Source of the DNA: a virus
UHGV virus genome: UHGV-1477313
Strand: one strand, 5' to 3'
Length of the DNA stretch: 29,790 nucleotides
Position 1 is the first letter of the stretch. Each line of letters opens with the position of its first letter. Positions 6,687 through 7,433 of the stretch are shown here, one piece after another. Below the pieces are notes generated by a model. That model was not told the origin of the DNA and searched no databases. It saw only the letters and a program-made list of their open reading frames with translations. The position numbers and the translations under genes are program-made.

Positions 6687-6756
6687 TGGCTGAAATCTGA
6701 GCGCAGAGATACAATCTTCAGGCCACGTATAAGTGGCCTACACATGGAAAGAAAAA

Positions 6757-6918
6757 ATGAAAAAAGCATTAGCGGTTCTGTTTGTTCTGTTGTCTTTGGG
6801 TTCTGCTACACAAGCTTTTGCTGGAAACTGCCAGCATGACAGCGATACGGCTTCGGATGGATCACGCTGCGGTGGTCGTTCTGCGGATTCCCGCCCGGGC
6901 GGCGGTGGCATTCGTTAA
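6757..6918 (+). CDS. Small secreted peptide with signal peptide (MKKALAVLFVLLSLGSATQAFA / GNCQHDSDTASDGSRCGG...), hypothetical
   Basis: Classic N-terminal signal sequence with an AXA cleavage motif; the short mature part has two Cys and a Gly-rich tail. ORF track starts at GTG 6733; ATG 6757 is more likely. Confidence 0.5.
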   Translation: MKKALAVLFVLLSLGSATQAFAGNCQHDSDTASDGSRCGGRSADSRPGGGGIR

Positions 6919-6923
6919 AAACA

Positions 6924-6941
6924 AGGCCGCGAAAGCGGCCT
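6924..6941 (-). terminator. Hairpin AGGCCGC-GAAA-GCGGCCT; terminator for the minus-strand structural operon, possibly bidirectional
   Basis: On the minus strand the hairpin is followed by TTGTTTTTAA; on the plus strand by ..CCCTTTT after the palindrome. Confidence 0.45.
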
Positions 6942-6953
6942 GTGACATGTCAC
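6942..6953. repeat. 12-bp perfect palindrome GTGACATGTCAC, copy 1 of 3
   Basis: Exact copies at 6942..6953, 24499..24510 and 26764..26775. This copy overlaps the stop codon of the 98-aa membrane protein gene. Confidence 0.6.
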
Positions 6954-7246
6954 GTCCCTTTTCTGAATGATAGCCATTCGAAAAATGATGACATTCCACC
7001 GCAGACAATAGCAAAGATTATCCCACCAAAGAATAGAAGGCCAGCCTGCCACCACTCCCACCGCCATACATCCACAGCGCCAACCATACCAACAATCGCT
7101 CCAACAAATGGAATATAGCTCACGATGAAAGCAATGGGGGCTGCAATTATCCAGTGCAATCCCCACCATGATTCAAGCCCAGCCATAATTGCTGCCAACT
7201 GAAAAAGACCAACGACGATATAAACAATGAATCCTATAGCTTGCAT
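6950..7246 (-). CDS. Small integral membrane protein (98 aa, 3-4 TM, Trp-rich), last gene of the structural operon
   Basis: AGGTGA SD 5 nt before the ATG; strongly hydrophobic translation. Confidence 0.65.
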   Translation of the reverse strand: MQAIGFIVYIVVGLFQLAAIMAGLESWWGLHWIIAAPIAFIVSYIPFVGAIVGMVGAVDVWRWEWWQAGLLFFGGIIFAIVCGGMSSFFEWLSFRKGT

Positions 7247-7250
7247 GTAG

Positions 7251-7433
7251 TCACCTATTTACCCAATAAAAAATAAGAGGCCTCCCCTCAATAAGGCTTG
7301 CAACAAGAACTACTCCCTGCACAACAAAGATGAACCAACAAATAGCTTGAGTCTGAGGGTTAAGAAAATATTTGTAGCGGTCAATAAATAACAATCCACC
7401 AGAAATTATCACACTCAAAATAATAAAAAACAC
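7251..7433 (-). CDS. Small membrane protein (60 aa, 2 TM)
   Basis: GTG start preceded by AAGGAAG; hydrophobic translation; 9-nt gap from the upstream gene. Confidence 0.5.
   Translation of the reverse strand: MFFIILSVIISGGLLFIDRYKYFLNPQTQAICWFIFVVQGVVLVASLIEGRPLIFYWVNR

Follow-up and report, generated by a model that had tools for sequence, protein, structure and literature searches.

The virus genome UHGV-1477313, whose analysed stretch of 29,790 nucleotides (nt) is referred to here as the window, carries three small genes, within 734 bp, at the end of its ejection-protein operon. One lies on the plus strand and encodes a secreted peptide precursor of 53 amino acids (aa); the other two lie on the minus strand and encode membrane proteins of 98 and 60 aa, here named p98 and p60. 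Judged by sequence comparison with related phages, the interval between the stop codon of gp17, the last ejection-protein gene, and a 12-bp palindrome with its adjoining terminator is a hypervariable cargo slot. On the same kind of evidence, the convergent peptide gene appears to be an autonomous moron, also encountered in other phage types. An earlier note, made from the letters alone, had placed three open reading frames (ORFs) here, at the end of the ejection-protein operon. Both the coordinates of the ORFs and this position, with p60 and p98 directly after gp17, stand when checked on the sequence. The features of the locus are as follows:

6663..6681, plus strand: intrinsic terminator of the upstream YafO-like toxin unit, an 8-bp GC-rich stem followed by T6
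6686..6715, plus strand: candidate weak sigma-70 promoter of the peptide gene, GTGGCT-18 nt-TACAAT, predicted from sequence
6720..6739, plus strand: hairpin in the 5' untranslated region (UTR) of the peptide gene, AGGCCAC-N6-GTGGCCT, -13.6 kcal/mol, z -3.9
6757..6918, plus strand: peptide gene, 53 aa (signal peptide, 6757-6822; mature part of 31 aa, 6823-6915)
6924..6941, minus strand: terminator hairpin of the ejection operon, GGCCGC-GAAA-GCGGCC, -17.9 kcal/mol, z -4.1
6942..6953, no strand assigned: perfect 12-bp palindrome GTGACATGTCAC, directly next to the terminator, with the p98 stop codon inside it
6950..7246, minus strand: p98, integral membrane protein of 98 aa (phrog_3075), with the Shine-Dalgarno (SD) site AGGTGA 5 nt upstream
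7251..7433, minus strand: p60, two-helix membrane protein with a GTG start and the SD site AAGGAAG
7443..9917, minus strand: gp17 homologue, 824 aa (phrog_684), last ejection-protein gene of the operon

By its sequence, the host phage is an epsilon15-like (genus Uetakevirus) temperate podophage of a type found as Escherichia coli prophage. Positions 6000-8000 match, by megablast, the Escherichia phages phiv142-3, HEMP4 and phiV10 and other members of this genus, as well as 551 of the 5,426 complete E. coli genomes.

All three genes are genuinely protein-coding, since the ratio of nonsynonymous to synonymous substitution rates (dN/dS) is low in frame and above one out of frame. Compared with Klebsiella phage BUCT711, dN/dS amounts to 0.075 for the peptide, 0.024 for p98 and 0.165 for p60, and the two wrong frames of the same DNA give values of 1.2-16. 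Such ratios point to strong purifying selection on each of the three. The genes are dispensable, because phiV10 and epsilon15 do without all of them. In the fully functional phage phiV10, the peptide gene is reduced to a deletion scar, its final ~22 nt, and an unrelated 46-aa two-helix gene follows gp17. In epsilon15 the peptide gene is absent, and gp17 is followed by gp18, an unrelated two-helix protein of 64 aa.

The three genes are not one unit: by the co-occurrence counts, they assort independently. The counts were made on 160 viral contigs, 80 bearing the peptide gene and 80 bearing p98. Among the peptide-bearing contigs, 28 have both p60 and p98, four have p98 only and one has p60 only; three carry the phiV10-type gene, one the epsilon15-type gene, and 21 have a gp17 but lack all of these. 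Of the p98-bearing contigs, 49 contain the peptide gene and 66 contain p60. A single co-inherited three-gene system is ruled out by these numbers. In the 21 contigs with none of these genes, other cargo is situated between gp17 and the peptide gene. The alternative cargo of the slot includes lipoproteins (137, 138 and 159 aa), a secreted protein (186 aa) and membrane proteins (63, 104 and 128 aa), in all at least seven unrelated proteins (L087, L098, L100, L027, L032, L026 and L031). Searched against Pfam, NCBIfam, PADLOC and PHROGs, these seven proteins matched only function-less PHROG families.

The distal end of the slot is marked by two elements. The first, the stable hairpin at 6924-6941, had been described as a terminator shared by the converging genes. 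The hairpin is real, but its two-way use is not borne out: the T-tract is found on the minus strand only, and the plus strand forms a GAAA-tetraloop hairpin without a U-tract. By sequence it is thus unidirectional and a clear intrinsic terminator of one operon, that of the ejection proteins. Epsilon15, phiV10 and TL-2011b have it as well, and it is considered a phage backbone element because epsilon15 and phiV10 carry it without these genes. A search of positions 6500-7600 against Rfam returned no RNA family.

The second element is the palindrome GTGACATGTCAC, of which the window contains three exact copies (6942-6953, 24499-24510 and 26764-26775; 0.00 expected), each at a gene end or an intergenic boundary. 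At 6942, as in epsilon15, it directly abuts the ejection-operon terminator, and behind the copy at 24499 comes a further terminator-like hairpin. The copies at 6942 and 26764 each enclose a TGA stop codon of the minus strand. It is kept in epsilon15 (L021, position 5518), phiV10 (L002, 6047), TL-2011b and Cronobacter prophages, with copies at 4188, 6302 and 5550 in L005, L010 and L019. The combination of the palindrome with a GGCCGC-loop-GCGGCC terminator is found in epsilon15, phiV10, TL-2011b and most viral contigs. The palindrome might serve a phage DNA-binding protein as its operator, or it might mark a boundary of recombination.

At the proximal end, p60 and p98 are tightly packed behind gp17. 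Only 9 nt separate p60 from the gp17 stop, which is overlapped by the p60 SD site, and 4 nt separate p60 from p98. This is consistent with co-transcription with gp17. As both genes have SD sites and no detectable promoter of their own, the two proteins are most probably produced along with the ejection proteins, in lytic growth or upon induction. Between p60 and p98, a terminator-like hairpin (7274-7290) was considered as an attenuator and rejected (z 0.04, unconserved in BUCT711).

The same tight packing favors another explanation for p60 and p98, namely that they are late helpers of the ejection proteins: an immunity or chaperone function against premature insertion of the membrane-active gp16 and gp17 in the inner membrane of the producing cell, or an aid to the packaging of these two proteins. 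The benefit would then fall to the lytic cycle of the phage and not to the lysogen. A small membrane-protein gene after gp17 is common (gp18 of epsilon15, p21 of phiV10, p60, ORFs of 63 and 43 aa), and p98 homologues are repeatedly found directly after very divergent gp17 homologues. However, such a gene is not universal. Nothing lies between gp17 and the terminator in Alcaligenes phage Piluca, and other relatives have only a lipoprotein or a secreted protein; a small protein with two transmembrane (TM) helices as a universal core gene was rejected on these grounds. Moreover, the slot proteins are mutually unrelated, and p98 also occurs away from gp17 and outside recognisable prophages. One homologue adjoins Bro-N in a Yersinia prophage, and another lies near a Bro-N gene and the integrase in a metagenome prophage contig. 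In Cronobacter and Salmonella prophages, p98 homologues of 54-61% identity directly follow gp17 homologues of 24-27% identity, the opposite of what is seen in co-evolving partners. This conservation after a divergent gp17, together with the sites in accessory regions, speaks for p98 as horizontal cargo and not as a co-evolving part of the virion. A helper function is, on balance, regarded as unlikely.

Both p60 and p98 are, by prediction, small polytopic membrane proteins, as proposed from the letters, with multiple hydrophobic helices in each. p98 has three hydrophobic stretches, and its AlphaFold model, with a mean predicted local distance difference test (pLDDT) score of 95.9, shows four helices (residues 2-28, 32-43, 46-61 and 65-97). 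It belongs to a broad family of proteins of ~100 aa, with 367 representative clusters at E <= 0.001. Some distant relatives are fused to TPR, MORN, DUF805 or zinc-ribbon domains; these fusions gave no functional lead.

p60 consists of two hydrophobic helices with a basic loop, DRYKY, between them. It is confined to prophages of Enterobacteriaceae, always 9-10 nt after gp17, and is left unannotated by the NCBI pipeline in E. coli genomes. The protein is 57 aa long in 66 of 66 viral-contig relatives and 60 aa long in the window: an extra T in a homopolymer (the A-run at 7268-7273 of the plus strand) exchanges the two final residues and lengthens the protein by three, so that the C-terminus reads IFYWVNR instead of IFTG, IFIG or IFSE. 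The longer allele also occurs, with 100% identity, in E. coli CP8-3, and for this reason it is a natural rare variant and not an error unique to the window. Proteins gp18 of epsilon15 and p21 of phiV10 share with p60 the slot, the orientation, a similar size, two predicted helices and the palindrome and terminator that follow. They differ from it in belonging to other PHROG families and in having no detectable sequence similarity, and p60 as a homologue of gp18 was rejected accordingly. The serotype-conversion alpha-polymerase inhibitor of epsilon15, gp21 (66 aa, two TM helices), was also rejected as a counterpart, as neither p60 nor p98 aligns with it at E <= 100.

Small multi-helix membrane proteins apparently transcribed with late genes could also be lysis proteins, such as a holin, an antiholin or lysis-timing factors, and p98 has a weak Pfam match to Phage_holin_5_2 (E 0.027, 15.2 bits). 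This score is below the curated family cut-off of 29.2 bits, though, and no structural match to holins was found. The phage also has a complete lysis cassette elsewhere (103-1427), as do phiV10 and epsilon15, and p60 and p98 are absent from fully functional relatives. A lysis function for either protein is therefore highly improbable.

The peptide precursor is composed of MKKALAVLFVLLSLGSATQAFA, the signal peptide, followed by GNCQHDSDTASDGSRCGGRSADSRPGGGGIR. The Sec-type signal peptide and 31-residue mature part initially predicted for it are fully supported by the sequence: the basic n-region (MKK, with the KK pair), the hydrophobic core ALAVLFVLLSLG within an h-region of 12-15 residues, and the stretch SATQAFA before the first mature residue, G, with small residues at -3 and -1 in an A-x-A cleavage site. 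The -3/-1 pattern A/S/V-x-A/S/G is retained in all 27 aligned homologues. No lipobox is present in the family, most members having N or R before the Cys. The mature part is hydrophilic, with 8 Gly, 5 Ser, 4 Asp, 4 Arg and 2 Cys residues; its designation as Cys/Gly-rich is hence right for glycine and not for cysteine.

Across the 27 homologues, the hydrophobic N-terminus is free to vary, and the polar exported part is near-invariant, with the pattern C-x-H/Y-x3-D/Q-T/S-A-x-D-G-S-x-C-G-x-R-S/A-A-x2-R/K-P-G-G. Invariant are C25, A32, D34, G35, S36, C38, G39, R41, P47, G48 and G49. This distribution is a sign that the peptide acts through its exported part. Exported by Sec and cleaved after AFA, it would be released as a hydrophilic peptide of ~3 kDa in the periplasm, where the two invariant cysteines probably form a 12-residue disulfide loop. 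A reading of the motif DxDxxxDG as an Excalibur-like or EF-hand-like calcium-binding site was rejected: its first two Asp are not kept among distant homologues, and no Pfam match was obtained. The peptide matches phrog_14503 and phrog_3117, the former of which is placed by PHROGs in the category 'moron, auxiliary metabolic gene and host takeover', and its NCBI name is 'transmembrane anchored protein'. A sequence search of the PDB with the peptide profile gave no match.

With its 53 aa, hydrophobic N-terminal segment and structured 5' UTR, the peptide could also be likened to the small hydrophobic toxins of type I systems (Hok/TisB style), controlled by RNA structure or antisense RNA. Its gene adjoins a YafO-like toxin gene, and a minus-strand promoter match of consensus level (6994-6967) faces its 3' end. 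But the conservation is concentrated in the polar exported tail and not in the hydrophobic segment, and the signal-peptidase site is conserved. No Hok/Gef or other toxin family was matched at E <= 1, nor any Rfam family, and promoter matches of this kind are at chance level (four found against 3.7 expected). Of all the explanations considered, a toxin is given the least credence.

The organization around the peptide gene is that of a separate unit, which would comprise the upstream terminator, the weak promoter, the 5' hairpin, the ORF and the backbone hairpin. The homology with other peptide-carrying phages starts at the upstream terminator (6663..6681). In the candidate promoter, the -10 positions T1, A2, A4 and T6 are invariant in six phages, and the -35 element reads TGGACG in relatives. 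The 5'-UTR hairpin is close to the predicted transcript start, with a conserved core (GCCAC/GTGG) and a variable loop. The gene occupies the same position in phiv142-3, HEMP4, BUCT711 and TL-2011b, and its presence in some phages and absence from others is the pattern of a moron.

Relatives of the peptide are encoded in 313 viral contigs and in 425-506 of the 5,426 complete E. coli genomes (~8%), compared with ~4% for p60 and p98; the natural lysogen E. coli ML35 has the p60-p98 region at 98% identity. The usual place of the peptide gene is in epsilon15-like phages of Escherichia, Klebsiella and Alcaligenes, where it converges on the gp17 operon; the homologue in the Alcaligenes phage Piluca is 51% identical. 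In TL-2011b it adjoins Ant/Arc. In a Pectobacterium prophage, a lone peptide gene lies on the opposite strand in the tail region, among neighbors with Phage_Tail_Tip and phage_tail_N domains. In another epsilon15-type prophage (L015, 6587-7144), it is found beside an Acb2/Tad1-like gene with a hairpin domain; this is a counter-defence or accessory neighborhood, Acb2/Tad1 being an anti-CBASS/anti-Thoeris sponge family. A family member also exists in Mesorhizobium.

This wide spread is compatible with a lysogenic-conversion or host-fitness factor unrelated to exclusion. The peptide could then remain uncleaved, as a membrane-anchored modulator of envelope signalling in the manner of MgrB and PhoQ. 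MgrB is a protein of 47 aa with an N-terminal helix and two essential periplasmic cysteines. Several points fit such a role: the gene is an apparently autonomous moron of several phage types, common in E. coli, the NCBI name speaks of a membrane anchor, and the near-invariance of the exported part across Enterobacterales, Alcaligenes and Mesorhizobium suggests a bacterial target that is itself conserved. On the other hand, the peptide has no sequence similarity to known regulators in Pfam, NCBIfam or the PDB, and the canonical, conserved A-x-A site and short h-region favor cleavage. In addition, bacteria lysogenic for the related phage ZX5 showed no detectable difference in growth, stress response, biofilm, antibiotic sensitivity or virulence (PMC9782041). 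The ZX5 record itself weakens this last argument: of the peptide, it shows residues 22-53 and no more, at the extreme end of the record. A host factor of this type is judged distinctly unlikely.

Among the known morons, HK97 gp15 and lambda bor and lom offer a comparison. Like them, the peptide gene has a patchy distribution, a terminator upstream, a hairpin downstream and a candidate promoter, and is carried by unrelated backbones. It differs in that its promoter is only a weak consensus match and its product a ~3-kDa periplasmic peptide; no characterised moron product of this kind is known. For p60 and p98, no promoter was found, and the operon terminator is shared. HK97 gp15 itself acts in exclusion at the inner membrane, and its gene lies within the tail operon.

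The layout of the remainder of this part of the window was drawn from annotated relatives and the ORF map:

103-1427, minus strand: lysis genes, a complete cassette of membrane protein, holin and endolysin, the same in phiV10 and epsilon15
1541-4489, minus strand: tailspike, 982 aa
4686-4942, plus strand: gp19-like gene, accessory cluster
5258-5953, plus strand: Bro-N antirepressor-type protein, 231 aa, accessory cluster
6055-6213, plus strand: 52-aa ORF, overlapping the start of the YafO-like toxin gene
6198-6674, plus strand: YafO-family toxin gene (Pfam E 2.4e-8)
9923-11725, minus strand: gp16, ejection-protein (internal virion protein) gene
11722-14310, minus strand: gp15, ejection-protein (internal virion protein) gene

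The gp17 of epsilon15 is the counterpart of internal virion protein D (gp16) of T7 (PMC4819975). The 52-aa ORF preceding the toxin gene could encode an antitoxin. The position of the YafO toxin is variable: in relatives it is taken by DUF4760, DUF2335, HicA/DUF1902 or other small genes. The gp19-like gene probably has its true start at the ATG at 4686, and a LexA (SOS) box that is close to perfect, TACTGTATATTTATACAGTT, immediately precedes the gene at 4646-4665; in epsilon15, TACTGTATAAACATACAGTA is found upstream of gp19 (L021, 5841-5860). The gp19-like protein and the Bro-N protein have a common C-terminal domain (phrog_450/15539). This domain and the LexA box suggest a small antirepressor under SOS control, comparable to Tum of coliphage 186 and to the Gifsy phages. 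Compared with the window, phiV10 seems to have a truncated or frameshifted Bro-N gene (L002, 5321-6000), and its 29-aa PhiV10p22 matches the C-terminal end of the window's 231-aa Bro-N protein.

The gene map resembles that of P22. There, the ejection genes 7-20-16 are followed by the convergent sieA, by mnt/arc/ant and by the tailspike; here, gp15-17 are followed by the cargo, the convergent peptide gene, the toxin-antitoxin pair, the Bro-N antirepressor with gp19 and the tailspike. The locus has the same map position as sieA/immI of P22, at the junction between the last ejection gene and an antirepressor-containing cluster before the tailspike. The analogy with immI is strengthened by the finding that the Bro-N protein of ZX5 acts as an antirepressor (PMC9782041). 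SieA is a small, dispensable multi-helix inner-membrane protein that blocks the gp20/gp16 DNA conduit; its several sequence types share less than 30% identity with one another, and it is up-regulated on induction (PMC10883804).

The differences from SieA are considerable. SieA measures 162-164 aa, and its gene runs against gene 16 from an annotated promoter of its own, whereas p60 and p98 run in the direction of gp17 and no promoter is detectable for them, and the gene in the sieA-equivalent convergent position encodes a secreted peptide and not a membrane protein. Set against the three to four TM helices of SieA, p98 has three predicted spans or four predicted helices, and p60 two. The cytoplasmic motif FxRYPxEAxxFNK, conserved in SieA types A-C, is absent from both proteins.

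The gene context fits superinfection exclusion or lysogenic conversion, as far as sequence can tell, and a hot spot for diverse envelope proteins is the usual signature of either kind of cargo. Near-identical copies of p60 and p98 travel with tailspike or tail-fibre genes of differing length and type: the tailspike of the window has 982 aa, those of phiv142-3, SCEC020022 and CP8-3 differ from it in length, and BUCT711 has one of the GDSL-esterase type. A conversion role specific for an O-antigen is for this reason unlikely, and the sequence comparison argues for a target of p60 and p98 that is common to these hosts or phages, rather than for one linked to the O-antigen type. The likeliest role of the three genes is, by analogy, superinfection exclusion at the level of the envelope. 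This reading is favored because the products are aimed at the envelope, the slot is rich in envelope cargo, a link with the O-antigen is unlikely and the map is P22-like; it is put forward tentatively, at somewhat less than even confidence. In this model, p60 and p98 would act at the inner membrane, where the conduit of the gp16/gp17 type inserts, and the peptide would act in the periplasm against the DNA delivery of an incoming phage.

A conceptual parallel, and only that, is provided by Spackle (Sp) and Imm of T4, a Sec-exported periplasmic protein and a small inner-membrane protein that block DNA delivery. Sp inhibits the tail lysozyme of T4. The gp15 of epsilon15-like phages has a lytic-transglycosylase domain (SLT match in Pfam, and the annotation of epsilon15), which could be the analogous target of a periplasmic inhibitor. 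Possible targets of the peptide, along the same analogy, are thus the virion-borne lytic transglycosylase of gp15-type proteins or a conserved host envelope protein needed by many phages. Sp is about three times larger than the peptide, T4 is a virulent phage that encodes both proteins among its early genes, and family searches with the three proteins gave no match to Sp or Imm. A more far-reaching proposal would join both sides of the locus: the exported two-Cys peptide would represent a new class of prophage periplasmic effector, a disulfide-looped ~3-kDa ligand that blocks trans-periplasmic DNA delivery, and the palindrome-bounded interval would be a dedicated exchange site for envelope-acting genes against superinfection. 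In this complete form, the proposal is quite improbable.

A number of observations weigh against exclusion. None of the three proteins belongs to a family of known function, as had been stated at the outset: Pfam, NCBIfam, PADLOC and PHROGs searches returned only function-less PHROG families, and PADLOC-DB had no match at E <= 1 for any of them. A fold search, which did not extend to the low-confidence peptide model, likewise gave no recognisable match for function, and a literature search on the NCBI name and the accession numbers found nothing. The positional analogy with P22 is not homology, as p98 and p60 reach only E = 20 and E = 33 in BLASTP against SieA. No sigma-70-like promoter was found in the 470 bp upstream of p60 and p98, which makes their expression in the lysogen doubtful; they may be silent precisely where exclusion proteins are most useful. 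Promoterless as they are, the two genes look like late genes, which keeps the helper function discussed above alive. The candidate promoter of the peptide gene is weak, too, with 8 of 12 positions matching the consensus, and is missed by a stricter promoter scan. The structure model of the peptide is of low confidence (pLDDT 69). Finally, a p98 homologue is located near hipBA in Aeromonas, outside a recognisable prophage, and the family, with its many clusters and its members outside prophages, may have a general membrane role.

In kind, the locus is ordinary: prophage accessory cargo of uncharacterised, already catalogued families, and that is all it would be if the exclusion reading is not true. 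The new points are the palindrome-bounded cargo slot after the last ejection gene, in which at least ten unrelated lipoprotein, secreted or membrane families have been seen, and the wide spread of a very small secreted peptide. A periplasmic effector of ~3 kDa, if true, would be an unusually small phage-encoded envelope factor. If exclusion is true, three very common, unannotated genes of E. coli and Klebsiella prophages would gain a function, and the slot behind the last ejection gene would be a place to mine for anti-phage genes acting at the envelope. Such genes narrow the host range of incoming phages, and the finding would then have a bearing on phage therapy and phage typing.

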